In this document: in pieces, positions 1 to 9,670 of the stretch
How positions within the stretch are numbered: the stretch's first letter is position 1
How the letters are laid out: every line of letters begins with the position of its first letter
Source: a virus
Taxonomy: Duplodnaviria > Heunggongvirae > Uroviricota > Caudoviricetes
IMG/VR virus record: IMGVR_UViG_2778261058_000021
Location: 1-9,670 of that record
Strand: one strand, 5' to 3'
Length of the DNA: 9,670 nt
The notes under the pieces: model-generated
The model's input: the letters and a program-made list of their open reading frames with translations, nothing else
Databases searched by the model: none
Told to the model about the DNA's origin: nothing
Position numbers and translations under genes: made by a program

Positions 1-996
1 CTAACGAACCAGCCAGACCAGCATCAGGATAATCGCGACTAACAGTATCCACAGCACGGGACGCGTTGCCATATTTTGCAACGTGTCCATCATTGGTGGA
101 AAAGGATTAAGCAGCGGTTGCATATCACGCGGATCAATCCCTTTAACCCGCCGTTGATAAAGCTGATTAAGAATATCCTCGGCCTGGGCAGAAGAAAGCG
201 ATGATTGCGCAGAAAGGCCATATTTTTGCTGGATATATGCCGATAACGCCGCCAGTTCACTGGCATCTAAAGGTTGTTTTAGCGCCATCTGTAGTGATTC
301 CAGCGTCGGCGTATTTTGCTGGCTTAGCGTCTGACGCGCCTGCAGCCAGGTCACCAGATGGTTAAACAGTTTCGCTGGAATTAACTCGCCATCTTTCACC
401 CCGGAAAGTTCCAGCATCGATTGCCAGATCTGTTTGCTGGGTTCCCCCGTTGCCGCCGCAAGTTTGGTCACCAGCTGTTTAAGCGCATTGTGCTCCGCCG
501 GTAATAAAGGACGGTCGGTCGCCTCGCGCTGCTGCGGTTGCGGAATAACCATCTTCCCTTCCTGCAACAGGGTGAGAATGGTTTTTAATTGCTCCGGTGA
601 GAGCTGATTCAGCGGCGTCTGACCAAAGTTATGACGGATATAATCCGTGACCGCCTGACGATTATTCCCCAGACGTAAATACTCCCCTAATTGCGCTAAA
701 AGCTGGCGGGCAGAATGGCTTTTTTGCGCGGCCAGCAGACGTTGCGCCAGGTTGTGTTCAGCGGCAGGGAAGTGACGCGAAAGCAGCGGTGAATCTCCCG
801 ACAGACCAATATCGTGCCTGATACCCGCCCACAGTTCTGCTCTTTGCTGTTGCGTCAGTGAGGTCACTTTCGTCATTAAGCTTTCCAGCGAAGTACGTTG
901 CTGACTGGATAAAGGCTGATTGCCCGCGCCAGACGGCAGGTTATCTCCCTGACCTGGTGGCTGCCCAGGAGGAGGGCCGGAAATAGGTTGTATCAT
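1..996 (-). CDS. flk: flagella biosynthesis regulator Flk (complete, 331 aa)
   Basis: Complete ORF, ATG at 996-994 and TAG at 3-1. Pro/Gly/Gln-rich N-terminus (MIQPISGPPPGQPPGQ) and C-terminal hydrophobic anchor (VLWILLVAIILMLVWLV) match my recollection of E. coli Flk. Not verified by search. Confidence 0.85.
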   Translation of the reverse strand: MIQPISGPPPGQPPGQGDNLPSGAGNQPLSSQQRTSLESLMTKVTSLTQQQRAELWAGIRHDIGLSGDSPLLSRHFPAAEHNLAQRLLAAQKSHSARQLLAQLGEYLRLGNNRQAVTDYIRHNFGQTPLNQLSPEQLKTILTLLQEGKMVIPQPQQREATDRPLLPAEHNALKQLVTKLAAATGEPSKQIWQSMLELSGVKDGELIPAKLFNHLVTWLQARQTLSQQNTPTLESLQMALKQPLDASELAALSAYIQQKYGLSAQSSLSSAQAEDILNQLYQRRVKGIDPRDMQPLLNPFPPMMDTLQNMATRPVLWILLVAIILMLVWLVR

Positions 997-1135
997 TACG
1001 TATCCTTATACCTGAAATCTTCGCAAGTATGCCTGGCCGCGAGATTATGGCACACTTGTCCGGTTAACTCTCGTCTCATACAGGTAACACAAACGTGAAA
1101 ATCCTTGTTGATGAAAAAGATGATTGGTTAATTTA

Positions 1136-1159
1136 TTGATATAAAAGGATTTATATCAA
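1136..1159. promoter_or_regulatory. perfect inverted repeat TTGATATAAA-N4-TTTATATCAA in the divergent flk / orphan-gene intergenic region; candidate operator for a dimeric regulator
   Basis: Read directly from sequence: ttgatataaa agga tttatatcaa. Function is inferred only. Confidence 0.3.
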
Positions 1160-1315
1160 CGTATGTCCACGCAGTGACCACATTTTCGAGATATAGTTAA
1201 AGCCCGTAAAATATGCGGGCTTTATAATTCTTGCTTTGCCCTCTTTTCAAACCATAAAATTTGTGTGCCTTTTTGGGGTGGTTAGTTTTATCTTTGATAT
1301 TATGGAGAATTATTC

Positions 1316-2056
1316 ATGCTTCATTGGGTTTGTATAAAATGTCAGTCTAAAAATTCTACGAAGGAATCAGTGTGTCCTGCGTGTGGAACTTCTTTTTGGT
1401 CGACGCAGAAAAAAGAAAGGAGAGGGTGTTTATTGTTAGTTGTAATGTTCTTCGTTGTGTTTTGGGTTATTGGGCAATTATCCGGAAACGAATCCGATTC
1501 ACAGGTAAATAATATTCCATCGAAAGATCATATTAGCGATGAACTTGCTTTATCTGGAGTAGACAAGGCGAAACCGTATTCTTTTGTGCGTTATGATGAC
1601 ATAAGTTATGCGGGACGAAAGAGATTTAAGGTTTTTATAGTGTCGCCTGAGTCTCAAGATTTAGAATCAAGAGCTTCGACAGCAATGGCCGCGGCTATTG
1701 AGTGGCAGAAAGAGAAGAGAGCTGACTTTGTATCTGTGTTGCTTCTACCTACGGAAAATTCTGAAGGTAGTTATCGGTTGGCAATGGTTGATTATTCTCC
1801 GGATGGTTGCGGAACTGGTGCTGTATGTGATAATAAAAAATGGACTATATTGTCTAGTGACGTAATATTAACGAAATCGCAACTTCAATCTATATCCTTG
1901 TGGAATGAGTATAAGAAAAAGTTTGCGGGTAATGATGGGATTTTGGATTTAAAGGAAGAAAAGAAATTGAAGCAGTTTATTAGTAAACAGCTAAATATTC
2001 CTGTTAAGGATGTATTTACTCCAGATATTTTTCCTTTAAAGAAAATCGAAGATTAA
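1316..2056 (+). CDS. hypothetical membrane-anchored protein: N-terminal CxxC-N11-CxxC zinc ribbon, basic stretch, one TM helix, ~190 aa extracytoplasmic domain; AT-rich, probably horizontally acquired
   Basis: 246-aa ORF with GGAG about 10 nt upstream of the ATG. CIKCQ...CPACG motif, then QKKERRG, then hydrophobic CLLLVVMFFVVFWVIGQL. Codon usage is A/T-rich unlike flanking genes. A hairpin/terminator follows. I recognise no family. Confidence 0.7.
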   Translation: MLHWVCIKCQSKNSTKESVCPACGTSFWSTQKKERRGCLLLVVMFFVVFWVIGQLSGNESDSQVNNIPSKDHISDELALSGVDKAKPYSFVRYDDISYAGRKRFKVFIVSPESQDLESRASTAMAAAIEWQKEKRADFVSVLLLPTENSEGSYRLAMVDYSPDGCGTGAVCDNKKWTILSSDVILTKSQLQSISLWNEYKKKFAGNDGILDLKEEKKLKQFISKQLNIPVKDVFTPDIFPLKKIED

Positions 2057-2133
2057 CAAAATAAATAGACGAGACTGAATTAGTATTATTGTAATCTTTA
2101 ACTGGTACCCTCACTTGTGAGGGCACCAAAAAG

Positions 2134-2170
2134 AAAACCCGCAGTTTTTACGCTGCGGGTTTCTGCTTTG
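2134..2170. terminator. bidirectional rho-independent terminator between the convergent orphan gene and hok
   Basis: Stem cccgcag (2138-2144) / ctgcggg (2153-2159) with an 8-nt loop; A-run upstream and T-rich run downstream give a U-tract on both strands. A second hairpin, ccctcac-tt-gtgaggg, lies at 2108-2123. Confidence 0.6.
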
Positions 2171-2248
2171 GGATGTGTATAGGGTGCCTTATCAGTCTTG
2201 CCCTGACAACCGATTGACGGGGGAATCTCTTCCCCCGTCGCGGTTTCC

Positions 2249-2389
2249 TTACTGTTTACACTGTAAGAACGCCGCAAACTCCGCTCCCCAGAAGCTCATC
2301 CGTATCTCACACAGCGAACCGTGCAGCATCCAGATGATAAGGATCGCCGTCACGCAGAACGTGATGGCTGTAAGCGATTTTTGCGACAT
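2249..2389 (-). CDS. hok: Hok/Gef-family type I toxin (46 aa); not in the supplied ORF track
   Basis: Minus-strand translation MSQKSLTAITFCVTAILIIWMLHGSLCEIRMSFWGAEFAAFLQCKQ: N-terminal TM helix, then SLCEIR and AAFL.CK motifs typical of Hok proteins as I recall them (closest to HokA). AAGGAG lies 7 nt upstream of the ATG. TAA stop at 2251-2249. Confidence 0.8.
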   Translation of the reverse strand: MSQKSLTAITFCVTAILIIWMLHGSLCEIRMSFWGAEFAAFLQCKQ

Positions 2390-2611
2390 AGCGCTTGCTC
2401 CTTTTTTGGGGAGGCGCTAACCTATCACTTGTCTAGGGTAGATGGTTAGGGCCTCGGTTAAACAAAAATGTTTTCCGGGGCCTTTCCACATCCGGCCTTC
2501 AGGTATTCCCTCCAGCCATCAGCCGAAAGGCACCCGCGCGAATTCTAGCCTGGTTTTTTCCCTTGTTTCAATCCGTTGAGACTTATCAGCCTTCTGATGT
2601 AGAATTCCCGA

Positions 2612-2676
2612 CCGCAGACATTATTCAGTCACGCATTTGATACATGCTTCCGCCGGCGTTCGCGCCGGTTTTTTTG
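2612..2676 (+). ncRNA. candidate Sok-like antisense RNA (about 65 nt) opposite the hok leader
   Basis: Plus-strand -35 TTGAGA (2576-2581), 18-bp spacer, -10 TAGAAT (2600-2605), then a strong intrinsic terminator at 2651-2675. The size matches the known Sok RNA. Position relative to the true hok mRNA 5' end is not established. Confidence 0.25.
2651..2675 (+). terminator. rho-independent terminator on the plus strand
   Basis: Stem ccggcg (2653-2658) / cgccgg (2663-2668), loop ttcg, followed by seven T (2669-2675). No plus-strand protein gene ends here, so it probably terminates a small RNA. Confidence 0.55.
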
Positions 2677-2692
2677 TCCTGTTGCTGCGTAG

Positions 2693-2949
2693 ATCGTTAT
2701 GTGCGATCGATGCGCTGTATTGATCCTTTTTTCAGTTTAATTTTGACTCTTAATTTTACGCAGGCCGCGCCGCGTCTGGCTTCGTTGTTTGACGATTTTT
2801 TGATGCGATCCTCTCGTGATCGCTTTTTGTCTCACGTAAAGTATAAAAACCCTTTTAATATCATGCAGTTTTATTGCTTCTGCCATTTGTGCGATCGTAA
2901 AAACCTCTCTGAAAACTGCAAAAAATTTCAAAACGTGAAATTTCTGATC
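2693..2949. repeat. GATC (Dam methylation site) cluster in AT-rich non-coding DNA
   Basis: Seven GATC at 2693, 2705, 2722, 2807, 2818, 2893 and 2946 within about 257 bp (roughly one expected by chance); several sit in a recurring GCGATCG context. AT-rich runs are interspersed. Confidence 0.5.
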
Positions 2950-3055
2950 TTCGCTTTTCCCTCAGTTGCTGCGCGGGCTGGCGGTCATTTTTGCACGGCA
3001 GAAAACTGAAAAAGTGTTTCGACACAAAACCCGCGGGTTGGAGGGGGTAGCGCGG

Positions 3056-3099
3056 TTTACGTCACCTCACGCTTTACGTCACACCGTTTACGTGGTGTG
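3056..3099. repeat. three direct TTTACGT repeats with an embedded inverted repeat cacacc-N8-ggtgtg
   Basis: gTTTACGTcac (3056-3066), cTTTACGTcac (3072-3082), gTTTACGTggt (3086-3096); inverted repeat at 3080-3099. Lies just beyond the 3' end of the tail operon. Confidence 0.4.
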
Positions 3100-3151
3100 C
3101 GCATACAGCGCCGGAATGGCACGCAGAACGCATTAATCAGGTGGCAGATAT

Positions 3152-3179
3152 GGAAAACGCACGGCCTGAACCGTGCGTT
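3152..3179 (-). terminator. candidate intrinsic terminator of the minus-strand tail operon
   Basis: Perfect 9-bp stem aacgcacgg (3156-3164) / ccgtgcgtt (3171-3179), loop cctgaa. On the minus strand it is followed by only a short U-tract (about 4 U). About 40-60 nt downstream of the stop at 3218. Confidence 0.35.
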
Positions 3180-3217
3180 GCGTGATGGGGCGTTTATGTG
3201 GATTTTATGCCCGGTGA

Positions 3218-4915
3218 TTAGGCGATAAGGTCGCCGTATTTTTCGCGAAGGCTTGTAGCCTGTTGGGCGTCTGCGGCAAGTTCGCTGCTGTTTGTTGGTG
3301 CGCCAGTGTTGCTGTGGGTGTGGTTTGCAGTGTGTGTGGCCAGCAACTGAACCAGATCCAGAATATCAATCAACAACGTCAGCAGATTAAGTCCGGATTT
3401 TTCCCGTGAGCCACCGCGCCCAATAAATACAGTCGGGGCAGTAAATTCCAGGCCGCCGTCCGCCCGGCATGTTCTGCGGCCTCCCACGTTTTCGGTGAGG
3501 TTATGCTCGATGGTGGATGTCGCCCCTTTGAGTTTAGTCAGCAAATCCTGCGCTACCATCTGGATATGCTCACCGGCTGCGATCGCATAATGGCCAGTAG
3601 TAATGTGTTCTGTCTGACCTGTCATCAGCTTGCTGGTTCCCAGAACGCTGGTTATGTCGTTTGCCTGTACTGTTGTTGTTCTGGTTGTTGTTGTGCGTTC
3701 TTCCTGATCGCTGTTAATGGTTCGCCTGGCTGAATGCTCCCTGATTTGCTGGTCGGTTTCTCTGTGCCAGCTTCCGTCAGTCGTGACACGCTGAAACACT
3801 TCTGCGCGCTGTTGTTGCAATTGTTCGCCGGGCTTTACATTAGGCAGGTTATGACCAGCGGGTAAGATTTGCCTGATGACAGGTTTATCCGGTCGTCCTT
3901 CAATGTTGGATATTTCCACGATGGTGCCAGCCGGCGGGTAGGCAAAACATCCCGCCTCACTGCCAGCCATGGGGACGGGGAGCGGTACTGCCGGGTAAAC
4001 GGGCGTATCGCTTTTATCGTTGCCGTTCTCATCAAGCAACTGCACATCGACGGCGTAGCGTGGGCGGAAACTGTCGGCCACATCGCCCAGGGTGGCGGGC
4101 TCCGTTGGTGCAATGACGCGCGCCAGCCGGGTATGTAGCGTACCGCTGGCCAGTTCCGGAAACTGTGTTTCCATTTGTCTGCGTAATGGTGATTTGGAAA
4201 CAGGGCTGCCCGTGGCGGTAAGGCGCTCCCATGTCAGGGTCATTTTCTCGTTGTTGAGGGCTACACGGGTAATGCGCCCGGCCGGAAGGTTCACGCCCGG
4301 TCGCACAGTTTCCATAAACATGATGTCGATGCTGTTTCCGCCGCTTTGCCCGAGTGTGTACTGTTGCGGAATATCCGGCATTGTAATACTGGCAAATCGT
4401 GAATCAGCTGCGCTTCCCACAAATACAGAACCGTCCGGCATAGGGTGCCAGACGTAATCGCTGATACTGAATGCTCGCCCCAGTTGGCTGAGCAGTTGTG
4501 CTCCGCTGCCGCTGTGGGTGATGTAGGGAGTTGGTATGCTGACGTAATCCGCATCTGGCGTGATGAAAACGATGCCGCTTTGTTTACCCAGATTATCGAG
4601 TACCCCCCGTAACGTCGGGTGTTGCATGGAGCAAGGGAAATCAAAATCCAGCACAGCAGCTGCTTCACGGATAAAAAGGCGACGTGAGCCATTTTCAGCA
4701 GGTTGATCGCGCTCAATGTAGCCGGAGAAATAGCGCCATGCTTCACCGTCACGGCCGAGATCAATTTGTACCATTGCGCCGGCAAGGGGGTGTTCGGGTG
4801 ACAGATTGTTAACAGAAATGAAGCCGCGACCGGCGGCATTCAGGGTAAGAACAAGGTTTATATCGGCAATTTCCACCCGTTCGCCATTAATCATGCAGCG
4901 TTGTATCAATTTCAT
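3218..4915 (-). CDS. uncharacterised phage protein (565 aa); C-terminus has a metal-site-like HTANHTH motif resembling fibre/spike tips
   Basis: Long ORF whose ATG overlaps the upstream stop as ATGA (4912-4915); GAGGAAGG-like SD upstream. C-terminal ...LLTLLIDILDLVQLLATHTANHTHSNTGAPT resembles HxH tip motifs I recall in P2 gpV (LHTHKHPGDSGG) and in lambda Stf / T4 gp37 (GAHAHS). No match to P2 sheath or tube proteins. Confidence 0.6.
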   Translation of the reverse strand: MKLIQRCMINGERVEIADINLVLTLNAAGRGFISVNNLSPEHPLAGAMVQIDLGRDGEAWRYFSGYIERDQPAENGSRRLFIREAAAVLDFDFPCSMQHPTLRGVLDNLGKQSGIVFITPDADYVSIPTPYITHSGSGAQLLSQLGRAFSISDYVWHPMPDGSVFVGSAADSRFASITMPDIPQQYTLGQSGGNSIDIMFMETVRPGVNLPAGRITRVALNNEKMTLTWERLTATGSPVSKSPLRRQMETQFPELASGTLHTRLARVIAPTEPATLGDVADSFRPRYAVDVQLLDENGNDKSDTPVYPAVPLPVPMAGSEAGCFAYPPAGTIVEISNIEGRPDKPVIRQILPAGHNLPNVKPGEQLQQQRAEVFQRVTTDGSWHRETDQQIREHSARRTINSDQEERTTTTRTTTVQANDITSVLGTSKLMTGQTEHITTGHYAIAAGEHIQMVAQDLLTKLKGATSTIEHNLTENVGGRRTCRADGGLEFTAPTVFIGRGGSREKSGLNLLTLLIDILDLVQLLATHTANHTHSNTGAPTNSSELAADAQQATSLREKYGDLIA

Positions 4916-5487
4916 GTTTTCCCTTCCTCTTTCACGCTCCCGATGCCAACAGCATCCAGACCAGAGCCAACGGCATCATTGATTTTTTTCCAGAACGAAC
5001 TTTGTGTATTCATGCCTTTGTCTGGTGCCTGTTCGCTACCGTTCTGGGTCTGCTGTCTGGCGATGGTTTTCTGCGAACCGCTGCGTGCGGATGCTTTCTC
5101 TGGCACGCTTAATTTTTCCCTGAGAGTAAAGGTGACCTGCCAGTGCATTTTTCCCTGTTGTTCCGTGGCATCAATGCCACCAGAAAATACCCCCTGTCGC
5201 ATATTGATTGCCTTCGCGGTAGCGTTAGCAATGCGATATGTTTTTTTGGCACCGTTGCTTTCTGTTGCCTCCGCAAGCTGAAAAATACGGGTCAGAATAG
5301 CTTCATCGTTAAAATCAATAACCCCCGACACGCGCAGCTCTTTAGCCTTGTTTCCCTGCTGGGCGCTCGTGGTGCTGGTTGACTGTCCGGACATATCTTT
5401 GTCCGGTAGTTGCATGGTGGCGCTGACGGTGATGTTGCGCAGCAGAATGGCTTCCCCGTCAAGCGCAAGGACAATCATCTGGGTCAT
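4912..5487 (-). CDS. uncharacterised phage-associated protein (191 aa)
   Basis: ORF in the same operon; overlaps the upstream gene by 29 nt and the downstream gene by 4 nt (ATGA). Ser/Thr/Gln-rich with no recognisable catalytic motif. An internal later start is possible. Confidence 0.55.
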   Translation of the reverse strand: MTQMIVLALDGEAILLRNITVSATMQLPDKDMSGQSTSTTSAQQGNKAKELRVSGVIDFNDEAILTRIFQLAEATESNGAKKTYRIANATAKAINMRQGVFSGGIDATEQQGKMHWQVTFTLREKLSVPEKASARSGSQKTIARQQTQNGSEQAPDKGMNTQSSFWKKINDAVGSGLDAVGIGSVKEEGKT

Positions 5488-6172
5488 GTAGTGCTTCCCT
5501 TAGTGATGAGAGATTATCGCCGACGAACAGCATCACAGCTGTAAAAACCCACTCGGGGTGTGGGATGTTTTTTTGTATCAGCACTGCAGCCTGGCTAAGG
5601 ACTCCCTTGTAGCAAAAGCGCCACACCGGGCAAAATTTTTGCCGGAGTGCGGCCTGCTGATCAGCGATTTCCTGTAAGGCTTTATCTCTCGCATTCATGA
5701 ACTGATGCAGTGATGATGACAATGTTTCCGGTGATGTGGCGGCAGGATTGGCTGCCTGTGCAATGGTTGCCGCCAGCGACATGCTGCGAGTGGTCTGTGT
5801 CGACAGCATTATCGGTTCCGGAAGTGATGTTGCCGGTCTGGCGGGGATTTGCATTCTGCTGATGGACAGTGAAAGCTGGCTGGAGATCATGCGGGACATT
5901 CGTCCCACCTCCGGCAACGGAAATGCGCCTGAAAATTGCCTGGCGAGTGATAAAAACTCGCCAGCAGAAGGAGCGCAAAATAACAGCGCCACAATGTCCT
6001 TTTCCGTGTTTTCTTTCAAATAGGGTAAAAGTGCAGATACAGCATTTTCGGGGCTGAGATAACGCCCCGATGGTTTGATGTTTCCGGTATTTTCTGACCA
6101 TGGATGAAGGCAAACCACAGAGCATTTAATGTTCATGGCCGACGGGCGCAGAATTGCCTTTTCCCATTTCAT
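5459..6172 (-). CDS. uncharacterised phage-associated protein (237 aa; alternative start at 6136 gives 225 aa)
   Basis: ATG at 6172 overlaps the stop of the upstream gene (ATGA at 6169-6172), implying translational coupling. No family recognised. Confidence 0.55.
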   Translation of the reverse strand: MKWEKAILRPSAMNIKCSVVCLHPWSENTGNIKPSGRYLSPENAVSALLPYLKENTEKDIVALLFCAPSAGEFLSLARQFSGAFPLPEVGRMSRMISSQLSLSISRMQIPARPATSLPEPIMLSTQTTRSMSLAATIAQAANPAATSPETLSSSLHQFMNARDKALQEIADQQAALRQKFCPVWRFCYKGVLSQAAVLIQKNIPHPEWVFTAVMLFVGDNLSSLREALHDPDDCPCA

Positions 6173-6750
6173 TCTGACTCTCCAGCCTGAAAAGCGCGGA
6201 TGTCGGCAAGATTATTCAGGCTATCCAGCACGTCCTTCATCTGTCGCTGACGCTGATAAATCTCGTCATTGCGATCGACCTGCGCCTGCGCCAGTGCTGT
6301 TGCCAGTTCTTCCAGTTCCGGCATCGACAGTTTCACCTGTTGATTATCGGCGTCACCCCATGCCATAACGTCCCGAGCTGTGTCGGATTTTGATGCCATC
6401 ACCACCGGATAAAGGCGAGCCAGTGAGTCGGGGCCAGCGTTCCAGATGTGGCCGTTCCATTCGAACGTGAACGGCTTCGCTTCCTGTTCTGTGCGCCACA
6501 CCTCGATTTCCCGCTTTTTGGCATCTTTTGCCGCTGCGATAAGTTCCGGCGTGACGGTGAACGGGGCGATTTCGCCCCATTTGCCGCTCTGTAACTCTTC
6601 CCAGATGCGCTGGCCTGTCGGTGCGGTATCGTCCTGCATGGCGGTATACGGGACGAATTCCGTTTCACCTTCAAATAACACCTCGCAGTCAACCGCATCA
6701 TTTTCGAGATAATGGGCGTTTCTGATGCCCTTTACCGCTCTGATTTTCAT
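6169..6750 (-). CDS. uncharacterised phage tail-associated protein (193 aa); possibly a chaperone/assembly factor for the adjacent fibre-like protein
   Basis: AAGGAG 8 nt upstream of the ATG at 6750; follows the 648-aa fibre-like gene after a 14-nt gap. Lacks the C-terminal motif of P2 gpG-type Tfa (W/Y..VL..RVD...WP), so a chaperone role is inferred from position only. Confidence 0.6.
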   Translation of the reverse strand: MKIRAVKGIRNAHYLENDAVDCEVLFEGETEFVPYTAMQDDTAPTGQRIWEELQSGKWGEIAPFTVTPELIAAAKDAKKREIEVWRTEQEAKPFTFEWNGHIWNAGPDSLARLYPVVMASKSDTARDVMAWGDADNQQVKLSMPELEELATALAQAQVDRNDEIYQRQRQMKDVLDSLNNLADIRAFQAGESE

Positions 6751-6764
6751 GTTCTATCTCCTTG

Positions 6765-8711
6765 TTACTCAATGCGCACGAACAAACAGATAAAGCCTCT
6801 GTCGCCATACGTTGCACGATAACCTGACAGGGCCTGATAACGACCGGGAAAACTGAATGCCCCAGCACCACCCGCCTTTACTGAAGGTGTGGAACCGTAT
6901 GTCCCGGAATTATTAATTGCACAGTCGATAGCCACAGGACCAAGTCGCGACCCCGCCACTACATCCCCAAGGCCAATTTTTATTTCCTTATCCCCTGCCG
7001 CTGTTCCCTGATAGACCGCGAGAATAAGAGAGCCAACTGCCGGATATTTGTAATATGAGTACGGGCCATTGCCCGCTGTCCGGGACAACAAGAACGCCAG
7101 CGAATCGCCGTCGTAAATAATGGGGCTTACTGTTGCATTCCAGTTGTTTCCACTCCAGCGGTAAGTCAGGCGATGAATGCTGTGTTCGCCTTCGTAATAC
7201 TGGTTAAAACACAGCAGCGTTTTGAATTTGCGTATTGCATCTGATTCGTCATTATCAAAGGGCGACCACATCACATCCATGATGCCGTTAAATTTCGTGG
7301 TGCCCGCCAGTAGTGTGGAAGAGTCCGCAATACTGACCGCATAACGCCCCGGGGTGGCCTCTTTCAGCCATTCAGCAAAATCAGCCTGACCGTTAAATGC
7401 CAGGGCTTCGGTGCTGGTAAATGCCTGACCGAATCCATACATGCCGGACAGCGCCAGCCTGCCCGGTGTACGATCCCAGATATCAGATTGCGCGTCTTTT
7501 ACAGTTGTGTTGCCAGTTAATGGAGTAAGATCTCTCCATACAACAGGGGCTCCGTAGTCAGAGCCGCGAACGCAGGAAAGAATACGTCCGTCTCTTCCGT
7601 AAAACAGAATAAGTTTTGTTGCTGTCTGGCTGGTTTTGTCATTCTGCCAGTTGTCCAGCCAGATAAATTCGACCACACCAGTTAAATCACCTGATGACAT
7701 TGATGATGTGTAATACCGACCCGGACCTGTGTTCATGCATATCAACGCAAGCTCATCAAGATTTGTAATGCCGAGCACCATCCCCTCGTGCTCTGTCATT
7801 CCGTATCCAAATGCCCCCGGTAGCGCCAGCCTGCCTGGTGTGCGGTCGCGGATATTGCTCTGGGGCTCCATCGTCGCAGCCGCTTTCAGTTCAAGTTCCG
7901 TGCGCATGGCTTCAGGTGTGTCCAGTGCCAGTAATGCGCGGGCTTTTTCTGACAGCGGAGAGAGAGAAACATTCCCGTCCTGATTAAAGTACAGAAGATT
8001 ATCTGCCCGTTTCGTCAGTTCACTGATTGCCGTCAGCAAATCGTTCAGCGGTTGTTTACCCGCCAGCGCGTTAATGACCGTCGCCGAAAAGTTCGGGTCA
8101 TTGCCCAGCGCCGCTGCCAGTTCGTTCAGTGTGTCCAGGGCTTCCGGTGATGAGTCAACCAGTGCGGCGAGCAGTTTGCGAACAAACGCTGCGTTCGCCA
8201 TCTCCAGCCCGACCGCATCGTCTGGCGGAGTTGGTGTGGTTGGCGTGCCGGTGAACGCCGGGCTGTCCAGTGGCGCTTTTTTGTTTATTTCAGGAAAAAG
8301 ATCTACCTGCCAGCTCTGTGGAGGAACGGTAATTTGCGCAGCCTGAGCAATGCCGCTGTATATAATTGTGAAATTACGAATAAGTGATTCGCCTGTTACT
8401 TTTTGTTGAACAGGCGTCTTTATTACGCCGCATAGTGTTCCGCTGGCCTGATGGATAAGGCAAATCCAGTCATAACTGAATGCACAGTCATCAGGAACAA
8501 CCGCGCTACACACAATATTGTTCGGGCTTAACTGGCCGTAGGTCAGTTCATTCACAGCATATGTGATTTTTTCTTCCGGAACGGTATTATCTTCGCGCGC
8601 TGGTTCCCGCTCCATCAGAGCAAAAATAATAGCGTCAGGGCGTGCAGGTAAATTACTGGCTGTGCATTCAGCAACCCACTTTTCAAATGCTTTCGTCAAC
8701 AGTGCGCTCAT
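6765..8711 (-). CDS. tail fibre-like protein (648 aa) with an unrecognised ~145-aa N-terminal domain, a conserved fibre collar segment and an internally duplicated C-terminal region
   Basis: Segment NKKAPLDSPAFTGTPTTPT...AALVDSSPEALDTLNELAAALGNDPNFSATVINALAGKQP matches the conserved segment I recall in P2 gpH and lambda Stf. The C-terminal half holds two diverged copies of a domain starting QS.I.DRTPGRLAL.G..G.G. Starts 6 nt after the tfa stop. Confidence 0.8.
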   Translation of the reverse strand: MSALLTKAFEKWVAECTASNLPARPDAIIFALMEREPAREDNTVPEEKITYAVNELTYGQLSPNNIVCSAVVPDDCAFSYDWICLIHQASGTLCGVIKTPVQQKVTGESLIRNFTIIYSGIAQAAQITVPPQSWQVDLFPEINKKAPLDSPAFTGTPTTPTPPDDAVGLEMANAAFVRKLLAALVDSSPEALDTLNELAAALGNDPNFSATVINALAGKQPLNDLLTAISELTKRADNLLYFNQDGNVSLSPLSEKARALLALDTPEAMRTELELKAAATMEPQSNIRDRTPGRLALPGAFGYGMTEHEGMVLGITNLDELALICMNTGPGRYYTSSMSSGDLTGVVEFIWLDNWQNDKTSQTATKLILFYGRDGRILSCVRGSDYGAPVVWRDLTPLTGNTTVKDAQSDIWDRTPGRLALSGMYGFGQAFTSTEALAFNGQADFAEWLKEATPGRYAVSIADSSTLLAGTTKFNGIMDVMWSPFDNDESDAIRKFKTLLCFNQYYEGEHSIHRLTYRWSGNNWNATVSPIIYDGDSLAFLLSRTAGNGPYSYYKYPAVGSLILAVYQGTAAGDKEIKIGLGDVVAGSRLGPVAIDCAINNSGTYGSTPSVKAGGAGAFSFPGRYQALSGYRATYGDRGFICLFVRIE

Positions 8712-8717
8712 TACTTC

Positions 8718-9272
8718 TTAATTCTTGCTAATGTTCTGCGGTAATTCTGGCCATACAATCGCGGCATACGATGCTTTATCTGTAACCTGGCTGAATGTCA
8801 TCTCCCGTAACGTTTTTGTATAAATACGGCATGCTTTCAGTTTTTCCTTGTCTTCGTCGCTGATTAATCCCAGCAGCAGGTCTTTTTCCCACTCGCTAGT
8901 TATGATGCTGATCTGTTTTAACAGAGCATCACGCTCATCTTCCGCTTTAAGTTTGTGGTCGAAAACAAATTCATCATTGCGATAAAACCAGTATCCCGAC
9001 GCCTCAATGCGACGATTAGCGGTAATATCCGGCAATTCAATCACACTTTTATTTTCCGGGCAGATTGAGGTGATGTCTTTTCCGACCCAGACCACTTCGC
9101 CAGTTTCGGCATAAATAACTTTCAGAGTGTCTGGCTGAAATTTTTCCTGGGCTTCGTGCCATTCCTGGCCATCATCTGAGAACAGCCACAATAAAAATTT
9201 ATGCTGCCGCGCCAGCTGGTATTGCTCAATTGTTTTGGGGTTTTGTGCCGTAAGATTTTTTAAGTGCATCAT
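8718..9272 (-). CDS. tail fibre assembly protein (P2 gpG / Mu U family, 184 aa)
   Basis: N-terminus MMHLKNLTAQNPKTIEQYQL closely resembles the P2 gpG / Mu U N-terminus (M.HLKN....NPKTKEQYQL) as I recall it; PDITANRR and C-terminal WPELP motifs are also present. Starts 2 nt after the upstream fibre stop. Confidence 0.85.
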   Translation of the reverse strand: MMHLKNLTAQNPKTIEQYQLARQHKFLLWLFSDDGQEWHEAQEKFQPDTLKVIYAETGEVVWVGKDITSICPENKSVIELPDITANRRIEASGYWFYRNDEFVFDHKLKAEDERDALLKQISIITSEWEKDLLLGLISDEDKEKLKACRIYTKTLREMTFSQVTDKASYAAIVWPELPQNISKN

Positions 9273-9274
9273 GA

Positions 9275-9670
9275 TTACAAACTCGCTACATTCCGCCAGA
9301 CGCCATTAATCAGAACCTGTACCGGGCGGGCATTGGCCCAGTCCATACTTTCACCACCATCAAGACCGCTGATAAGGTGACCTGATGGTGCATTCCCGCC
9401 ACGCCCAATACCAATGGCACTGCCCAGACGCACATCCTGTACACCGCCTGTTTTGGCCTGATAGCGGGCATCAAAGTTTCCGTAGTTTGATGGAACCATC
9501 TGCCCGTTTACAGCGAACGTTATACTGTTATCCGTATTCCTCTGACTGTAAAAATGCCAGCCGGAATCATCGCCAAGCTCTGCAACTACAGGTCGGGATG
9601 AATTACCCCATAAACTAAACGTTGCGTTTTTCGTGGAGTTGTTGGCGCTGGATAACGTGAATTTTTTAGC
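9275..9670 (-). CDS. tail fibre protein, C-terminal part only (P2 gpH-like); the reading frame stays open to the window edge
   Basis: I translated the frame upstream of the listed 74-aa ORF and it stays open to 9670: ...NSTKNATFSLWGNSSRPVVAELGDDSGWHFYSQRNTDNSITFAVNGQMVPSNYGNFDARY...LINGVWRNVASL. This is close to the P2 gpH C-terminus as I remember it (STKNITFNLWGASTRPVVAELGDEAGWHFYSQRNTDNSVIFAVNGQMQPSNWGNFDSRY...INGTWYNVAQV). TAA at 9277-9275. Confidence 0.85.
   Translation of the reverse strand, partial: AKKFTLSSANNSTKNATFSLWGNSSRPVVAELGDDSGWHFYSQRNTDNSITFAVNGQMVPSNYGNFDARYQAKTGGVQDVRLGSAIGIGRGGNAPSGHLISGLDGGESMDWANARPVQVLINGVWRNVASL

Follow-up and report, generated by a model that had tools for sequence, protein, structure and literature searches.

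A DUF4875 gene carried as an accessory cassette by a P2/HP1-like prophage of Escherichia coli: a candidate for superinfection exclusion

What might a rare, AT-rich gene contribute when it stands as the last gene of an Escherichia coli prophage? The question is raised by a stretch of 9,670 nucleotides from a tailed virus (Caudoviricetes; IMG/VR record IMGVR_UViG_2778261058_000021, positions 1 to 9,670), here called the window, in which an open reading frame (ORF) with an ATG start encodes a 246-aa product of the Pfam family DUF4875. Our preferred reading, to which we assign a probability of about 0.4, is that this DUF4875 protein is an envelope protein made by the lysogen that excludes superinfecting phages. 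The ORF is a real gene and not a chance frame in AT-rich DNA, because its Pfam match lies far above threshold and because comparison with a diverged allele gave a ratio of nonsynonymous to synonymous substitution rates (dN/dS) of 0.21 at a dS of 0.15, from 21 synonymous and 18 nonsynonymous differences. No diversifying selection was seen at the whole-gene level in this allele comparison (dN/dS ~0.2), and the cassette gene, although rare, is under purifying selection. Its AT-richness, which the initial annotation had stressed, was confirmed by a computed GC content of 37.1% (32.0% at third codon positions), compared to 52.7% in flk and 51-54% in the phage genes; the spacer upstream (1118-1315) has 32.8% GC.

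Position in the prophage and distribution

The gene had been placed between a core gene and a toxin or prophage remnant, a position that did not hold, as an apparently complete prophage of ~35 kb encloses both the gene and hok/sok; its junction with core DNA falls at 1098-1117, within pdxB. In the 5,400-plus E. coli genomes without the gene, homology to the window stops at position ~1117, 22 nt into pdxB, and the exact 20 nt of 1098-1117 recur at the integrase end of the STEC711 prophage (locus L006, 24250-24269), by the integrase gene and the rest of pdxB. Between these attachment (att) repeats lies a P2/HP1-like element (Peduoviridae) with genes for an integrase, a CI-like regulator, Cox, gpA, ParM partition proteins, ogr, portal, terminase, scaffold, a P2-family capsid, lysis proteins, sheath and tube, tape measure, baseplate, tail fibres and hok/sok, followed by DUF4875 as the last gene, ~200 bp from the integrase-distal att site. 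The hub protein of the baseplate (3218-4915) shares 46-47% identity with its counterparts in HP1/K139/SW5-type Peduoviridae. The DUF4875 gene is thus the last gene of an intact P2/HP1-like prophage inserted at the 5' end of pdxB, and it is convergent with hok, as first described.

Within this prophage the gene occupies a slot whose contents are swapped among sister prophages. The backbone common to the prophages at the pdxB site extends up to 1223 and resumes from ~2103-2109, and both junctions coincide with hairpins, a terminator-like one on the left and two back-to-back ones on the right, between the convergent DUF4875 and hok genes, which probably form a bidirectional terminator. Where the window has an 885-bp AT-rich DUF4875 cassette, strain no107 (L012) has 16 bp, strain H9Ecoli (L003) and many other strains have a 1042-bp cassette for Com and a DNA methyltransferase, and a Citrobacter-like element (L011) has a 57%-identical DUF4875 gene together with a methyltransferase. 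A presence/absence check of 5426 complete E. coli genomes found the gene in seven, namely, six Shiga toxin-producing E. coli (STEC) isolates from goat, mutton and beef and one human isolate. One identical copy was found in a metagenome scan, and no match to the gene was obtained in a plasmid collection or, with the single protein as the query, among species-representative genomes. This distribution, the delimited 885-bp cassette and the GC content of 37% agree with the horizontal, accessory status that had been proposed. The gene makes up an accessory cassette of its own (a "moron") and is dispensable, since there are sister prophages without it.

The other cargo of this slot, the Com regulator with a DNA methyltransferase of ~260 aa (L003 8227-9160; L011 2314-3096), has an arrangement resembling com/mom of phage Mu and is common at pdxB in E. 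coli prophages. The hok/sok locus is kept in all three states of the slot, that is, when it is empty, when it carries Com and the methyltransferase, and when it carries DUF4875.

Insertion also alters pdxB. The native pdxB promoter and start codon are left with a stub of 14 codons at window 1096-1140 (MKILVDEKDDWLIY, then a stop codon), and at the integrase end pdxB is annotated with a phage-derived 5' extension, giving a coding sequence of 1158 nt (385 codons) with a TTG start (L006 24226-24269) that lies 24 nt upstream of the att repeat. As pdxB is split from its native promoter, its expression must rely on upstream sequence supplied by the phage.

By nucleotide comparison the DUF4875 cassette is itself mosaic. 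Over the DUF4875 domain the E. coli allele is 72% identical in nucleotide sequence to the Citrobacter-like one, and no nucleotide similarity was detectable over the promoter region, zinc ribbon and transmembrane (TM) segment (window 1316-1555 versus L011 1529-1768). When two E. coli alleles were compared, dS was 0.02 for the first 80 codons, rising to 0.22 over the DUF4875 domain.

The DUF4875 family and predicted topology of the protein

The product had been regarded as an orphan of no recognised family. Instead, it scored 121.2 bits with the Pfam profile DUF4875 (PF16175), for which the cutoff is 25 (E=4.2e-35), and residues 84-237 cover profile positions 2-155 of 156, which settles its membership in the family. 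When 1.84 billion representative proteins were searched exhaustively with HMMER, 318 family clusters were obtained at E<=1e-3, of which 123 passed E<=1e-10; a word-index homologue search had found 4 proteins from the single query and 6 from an alignment. One member has a crystal structure (4LG3), that of DESPIG_00776 from the gut anaerobe Desulfovibrio piger, a structural-genomics entry without an assigned function. The window protein, for which the AlphaFold2 (AF2) model is confident, shares the 4LG3 fold, which consists of a beta-beta-alpha-beta-beta-beta core and then two C-terminal helices.

The initial annotation had described a cytoplasmic zinc ribbon, one TM helix and an extracytoplasmic C-terminal domain, and this predicted architecture was upheld by our reading of the sequence and by the AF2 model. 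Near the N terminus, Cys6/Cys9 and Cys20/Cys23 form a CxxC-x10-CxxC pattern, over which AF2 predicts short beta-hairpins (predicted local distance difference test score, 71-77). Among the Pfam zinc-ribbon models compared, including Zn_Ribbon_1 (PF13240), DZR (PF12773) and Zn_ribbon_RanBP (PF00641), none scored above its gathering threshold (E of 0.002-0.06; best 17-18 bits, cutoffs 25-27). Nineteen of 150 family representatives begin with the same module, which is also present in the 57%-identical Citrobacter-like allele, and on account of the Cys4 pattern and its conservation in relatives we assign this motif as a predicted metal-binding zinc ribbon. A basic stretch (KKERR) precedes the TM helix, beyond which lies a C-terminal part of ~190 aa with two cysteines, Cys165 and Cys171, within PDGCGTGAVC. 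From the positive-inside distribution of charges around the helix, the requirement of a Cys4 zinc site for a reducing compartment such as the cytoplasm, and the predicted disulfide described below, we infer an N-in/C-out topology and predict a location in the envelope (inner membrane/periplasm), to which the lipoprotein-type or TM-type anchors of relatives also point.

One other role, that of an anti-sigma factor (zinc motif, TM helix and sensor domain), was rejected; the protein has a bare CxxC...CxxC motif rather than HxxxCxxC, its ~30 cytoplasmic residues are too few for a sigma-binding domain, and no sigma gene is adjacent.

Anchors of several kinds occur in the family. By a rough heuristic classification, 137 of 150 inspected representatives carry DUF4875 behind an N-terminal membrane anchor or export signal, which is a lipobox-like signal in 24, one TM helix or signal in 57, two to three TM helices in 37 and, as in the window protein, a zinc ribbon with a TM helix in 19; the remaining 13 were left unclassified. 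Its anchor thus sets the window protein apart from most DUF4875 proteins. Because anchors vary in this way, they would appear to be interchangeable, and we predict that the constant functional unit is the extracytoplasmic domain.

Alignments showed that all of the family-conserved residues, i.e., Y88, R101 and R103 (GRxR), T122, Y160, D163, G166 and G168 (YxPDGxG), and W176, are present in the window protein. The two cysteines define a subfamily; over the family, both were present in 33 representatives, neither in 72 and the first alone in none, and where the Cys type reads PDGCG...C, the non-Cys type reads PDGGGxSGDQxWxW. This covariation is as a disulfide predicts and agrees with a periplasmic location, and we infer that Cys165 and Cys171 form a periplasmic disulfide bond. 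The 4LG3 protein differs in this respect, as it reads YAPDGKGVSG and apparently lacks the Cys-Cys loop, as judged from one alignment.

DUF4875 also occurs in fusions. A 606-aa protein of the non-Cys subfamily, encoded on a predicted viral contig (L025 3229-5049), joins bPH_3, SHOCT and DUF4875, and Sel1 repeats are the fusion partner in two further members of the family.

Settings of homologues and the case for exclusion

Every homologue context examined was that of a temperate myophage (contractile-tailed) of the P2, HP1 or VHML type. In Vibrio phages MAR and VP585 the DUF4875 gene follows the last tail gene, at L026 it stands at the end of a tail/baseplate module, and a non-Cys member other than that of L025 adjoins a DNA methyltransferase gene and baseplate genes. 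Elsewhere it is placed with the lysogeny genes. The lysogeny operon of Aeromonas phage LPM4 carries, on one strand, the repressor, two small genes, DUF4875 and the integrase; in a Shewanella prophage the gene is directly downstream of a CI (S24) repressor on the same strand; a Pseudoalteromonas prophage (L013) has it between the integrase and an S24 CI repressor; and three IMG/VR prophages share the order integrase, DUF4875, CI repressor, gpA. Anti-phage genes are found next to it at two loci. The Pseudoalteromonas gene has an AbiC/AbiP-like gene on one side and a bSEFIR TIR protein on the other (PADLOC E=9e-75), and the L025 cluster consists of GmrSD_N, HEPN, the bPH-SHOCT-DUF4875 fusion, a 200-aa ORF and a KAP NTPase. 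The Shewanella and Pseudoalteromonas loci were taken from the unbiased set of species-representative genomes.

On a circular phage map, all of these positions fall within one stretch that runs from the last tail gene through att and the integrase to CI. In P2-like phages the tail protein-CI region counts as a third accessory hotspot (bioRxiv 10.1101/2024.10.15.618418); the stretch also takes in int-att and int-primase, which are defence hotspots of the Peduoviridae (PMC13586616), and gpA-gpQ is the classic one, from which systems have been mined experimentally (PMC9122126); DUF4875 is not named as cargo in these papers. Compared with the known Peduoviridae hotspots (gpA-gpQ, with old/tin; Z/fun; int-att; int-primase; tail protein-CI), the window cassette lies between the last tail/baseplate genes and att, and like them it has alternative cargos with identical junctions. 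The classic gpA-gpQ site differs in holding ParM/partition genes in this prophage.

At that site in STEC711 (L006 13368-15319) the partition genes are accompanied by a gene for an Rrf2-family regulator, and no defence system was recognisable there.

Several observations bear on when the gene would be expressed. It is oriented against the late tail operon, and no Ogr-type late-promoter dyad (TGT-N12-ACA) was found upstream of it. After integration the host pdxB promoter points into this end of the prophage, and the left hairpin, with the T-rich run behind it, probably shields the cassette from that promoter. Binding of H-NS, by which the initial annotation expected the gene to be silenced, is plausible for the ~1-kb block of 33-37% GC. 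Support for expression in the lysogen is positional, homologues being placed within or adjacent to the repressor operon.

The preferred reading is that the window gene encodes a type II inner membrane protein, with a Cys4 zinc ribbon of ~30 residues in the cytoplasm, one TM helix and a DUF4875 alpha/beta domain of ~165 residues in the periplasm that would be held by the Cys165-Cys171 disulfide bond. Made in the lysogen, it would act at the outer face of the inner membrane against superinfecting phages, and the step affected would most likely follow adsorption, being either penetration by the tail tip and tape measure or transfer of DNA across the periplasm and inner membrane. We favour exclusion because the gene is dispensable prophage cargo, because its product is predicted to present an exported, tethered domain, and because homologues are placed in lysogeny modules and have anti-phage neighbours. 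A more specific proposal, which we consider possible but doubtful, is that DUF4875 constitutes a new family of single-gene periplasmic exclusion proteins that are modular cargo of the tail-att-int-CI hotspot in P2/HP1/VHML-type phages; its GRxR/YxPDGxG/Trp surface would bind a part of the incoming contractile tail (tape measure, spike or tail lysozyme) in the manner of an immunity protein, and its anchor, whether zinc ribbon, two TM helices or lipid, would be freely exchangeable.

The closest parallel is Glo of phage K139, a periplasmic protein annotated in phage exclusion whose gene lies in the cI-int slot of the HP1/K139 lineage (PMC4870250). Like Glo, DUF4875 is a non-essential, single-gene and, by prediction, extracytoplasmic cargo of the same phage lineage, and Aeromonas LPM4 and the Shewanella and Pseudoalteromonas prophages carry DUF4875 in the cI-int slot that houses glo. 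Homology to Glo was rejected, as profile alignment with hhalign gave a probability of 0.3 (E=0.23) and covered the hydrophobic leader only; hence, the parallel is positional and functional. Glo differs further in having 137 aa and being secreted with a cleavable signal, whereas the window protein is predicted to be membrane anchored, and the window gene lies across att from the glo slot, next to hok and the baseplate genes.

Small inner membrane or periplasmic proteins of phages and prophages that block genome entry after adsorption include lactococcal Sie2009, Imm and Sp of T4, gp15 of HK97 and SieA of P22. Post-adsorption action is understood for Glo, Sie2009, T4 Imm and Sp, and HK97 gp15, and Sie2009, with an N-terminal anchor and an external domain, has the topology predicted for the window protein. 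None of Sie2009, Imm, Sp, gp15 and SieA shows sequence or fold similarity to the window protein, and we know of no cytoplasmic zinc ribbon in any of them. More broadly, the window protein gave no fold match to known exclusion proteins, nothing below E=1e-3 in the BFVD library of viral folds, and noise only in an NCBIfam search.

A number of results weigh against an exclusion role. A strict scan for sigma-70 promoters found none on the plus strand upstream of the gene, so that its expression in the lysogen is assumed. No family of PADLOC-DB v2 matched the window protein at E<=1, and none matched the Pseudoalteromonas, Shewanella or Aeromonas homologues; the PHROG matches are all to families of unknown function. 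Our literature search found no paper naming DUF4875, nor do we know of an experiment on it. Most contexts come from a phage-biased collection of viral contigs, with three loci from unbiased genomes, two of which are verified prophages. The alternative cargo of the slot, Com and the DNA methyltransferase, serves protection of the phage's own DNA, and hence the slot marks conflict-related cargo in general rather than host defence specifically. Finally, the invariant residues R101, R103, D163, Y160 and W176 may just as well belong to a conserved site for ligand binding or catalysis as to the surface of a rapidly coevolving inhibitor. The defence or exclusion role raised by the initial annotation is strengthened by the repressor/integrase slots and defence clusters in which homologues lie, while no known defence-system model (PADLOC) supports it.

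Among the alternatives, the one that survives best, although we regard it as unlikely, is a lysogenic-conversion factor that acts on an envelope component (peptidoglycan, lipopolysaccharide or the lipoprotein pathway) and affects fitness, stress tolerance or colonisation, comparable to Bor and Lom of lambda or to O-antigen-modifying morons. Conservation of GRxR, YxPDGxG and W176 in a family that is otherwise 25-35% identical suggests a ligand site and fits such a factor, as do the lipoprotein members in nonenteric bacteria (the 4LG3 protein of D. piger, for example), the fusions to Sel1 repeats and bPH domains, and the sources of the seven E. coli carriers, every one of which is animal or human gut or meat. 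However, searches of Pfam, NCBIfam, Protein Data Bank (PDB) sequences and folds revealed no likeness to any enzyme or binding-protein family, and the neighbours at two independent loci are anti-phage genes and not virulence or envelope genes.

Decidedly less probable is a role in the phage's own cycle, be it masking of the receptor or entry route (as by Llp of T5), which would keep progeny from being lost on debris or on cells that are infected already, timing of lysis or help with genome entry. The gene ends the tail/baseplate module in the window, in Vibrio MAR and VP585 and at L026, all carriers found are contractile-tailed phages of the P2/HP1/VHML type, and the Com and methyltransferase cargo is phage serving, all of which would suit this role; yet sister prophages do without the gene, it runs opposite to the late operon and lacks the Ogr-type motif, and six other phages have it within or next to the repressor/integrase module, a module that lysogens of K139-type phages transcribe.

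We give marginally less weight still to a periplasmic immunity-type protein that would protect the lysogen from bacterial attack by neutralising a competitor's toxin, such as a type VI secretion system (T6SS) effector, a colicin or other bacteriocin, or a tailocin component. Its sole basis is a marginal fold similarity, with no sequence similarity, to BtpiA (PDB 9jdi_C), the immunity protein of the Bacteroides fragilis T6SS effector BtpeA, a protein for whose fold a literature search returned no descriptive paper; against it, no effector-like neighbour was present in the window or at at least 10 homologous loci. Last, a neutral or decaying hitchhiker without current function in E. coli, as the presence in 7 of 5426 genomes, the AT-richness, the lack of an identified promoter and the truncated 207-aa annotations among relatives might suggest, is highly improbable in view of the intact frame, the good ribosome-binding site (RBS), the dN/dS of 0.21 at a dS of 0.15, the retention of all family-conserved residues and the confident AF2 model.

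Neighbouring features and implications

The features of the cassette and of the prophage end are listed in Table 1. The sok match scored below the Rfam gathering score, and the candidate promoter, a weak one and the sole sigma-70 candidate within the cassette, came from a relaxed scan.

Table 1. Features of the DUF4875 cassette and the adjoining prophage end (window coordinates)
Feature	Position	Strand	Basis
Core/prophage junction: pdxB GTG start and first 7 codons, with 20-nt att core (1098-1117)	1096..1117	+	Homology to prophage-free genomes ends at ~1117
Terminator-like hairpin of the conserved backbone, left cassette junction	1198..1224	+	Terminator scan; homology to L012, L003 and L011 ends at 1223
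AT-rich DUF4875 cargo cassette, 885 bp	1224..2108	+	Slot swapped in sister prophages
Weak candidate sigma-70 promoter, TTGCTT-18-TAAAAT	1231..1260	+	Relaxed scan; 8/12 consensus
RBS, GGAGA	1303..1307	+	8 nt before ATG; read from sequence
Coding sequence, 246 aa: zinc ribbon, TM helix and periplasmic DUF4875 domain (predicted topology)	1316..2056	+	RefSeq: DUF4875 domain-containing protein
Zinc ribbon, residues 6-23, predicted cytoplasmic	1331..1384	+	Sub-threshold Pfam matches; module in relatives; AF2
Single TM helix, residues ~35-55, predicted N-in/C-out	1418..1480	+	Hydropathy 2.5; AF2 helix 35-54
DUF4875 domain, residues 84-237	1565..2026	+	Pfam profile match
Cys165...Cys171 (PDGCGTGAVC), predicted disulfide loop, one subfamily only	1808..1828	+	Both Cys invariant in Cys-type subfamily
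Two back-to-back hairpins between convergent DUF4875 and hok, right junction, probable bidirectional terminator	2098..2163	.	Backbone hairpins
hok (Hok/Gef toxin), conserved prophage end, outside the cassette	2249..2389	-	RefSeq annotation
sok antisense RNA region	2401..2535	-	Rfam RF01794, 47.3 bits, E=6.5e-9 (gathering score 59)

Beyond sok, the 673 bp up to the baseplate hub gene (2545-3217) hold no RefSeq gene, have a strongly negative AT skew and include a terminator-like hairpin (2652-2669); no Rfam match and no blastn match in the phage collection were obtained for this segment. Classical P2-like sister prophages have ogr at the equivalent position, and here ogr adjoins the portal gene. 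On the minus strand at 6169-9272, two tail-fibre-assembly (chaperone) genes, for products of 193 aa (DUF4376-type) and 184 aa, flank a gene for a 648-aa tail-collar fibre. Its STEC711 counterpart differs in length (1296 nt), which suggests exchange of host-range cassettes between otherwise near-identical prophages.

The DUF4875 family, its structure and the hotspot are already known, and an exclusion role is the one that we favour for the window protein; membership of the protein in a characterised defence, exclusion or immunity family is not established. The window protein offers an inexpensive and well-defined subject for experiments and is not a surprise; should it have no effect on phages, it would be an unremarkable prophage moron of unknown function. 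Of the layers of phage resistance, exclusion at the envelope is the least catalogued; its proteins are small, share no common domains and are missed by tools of the DefenseFinder/PADLOC type. If DUF4875 does exclude phages, this layer would gain a Pfam-defined family with a structure, ~300 representative clusters could be annotated, and the tail-att-int-CI region of Peduoviridae would be flagged for mining. Within E. coli, the gene counts as a rare, strain-specific trait and could alter phage typing or susceptibility to phage therapy.

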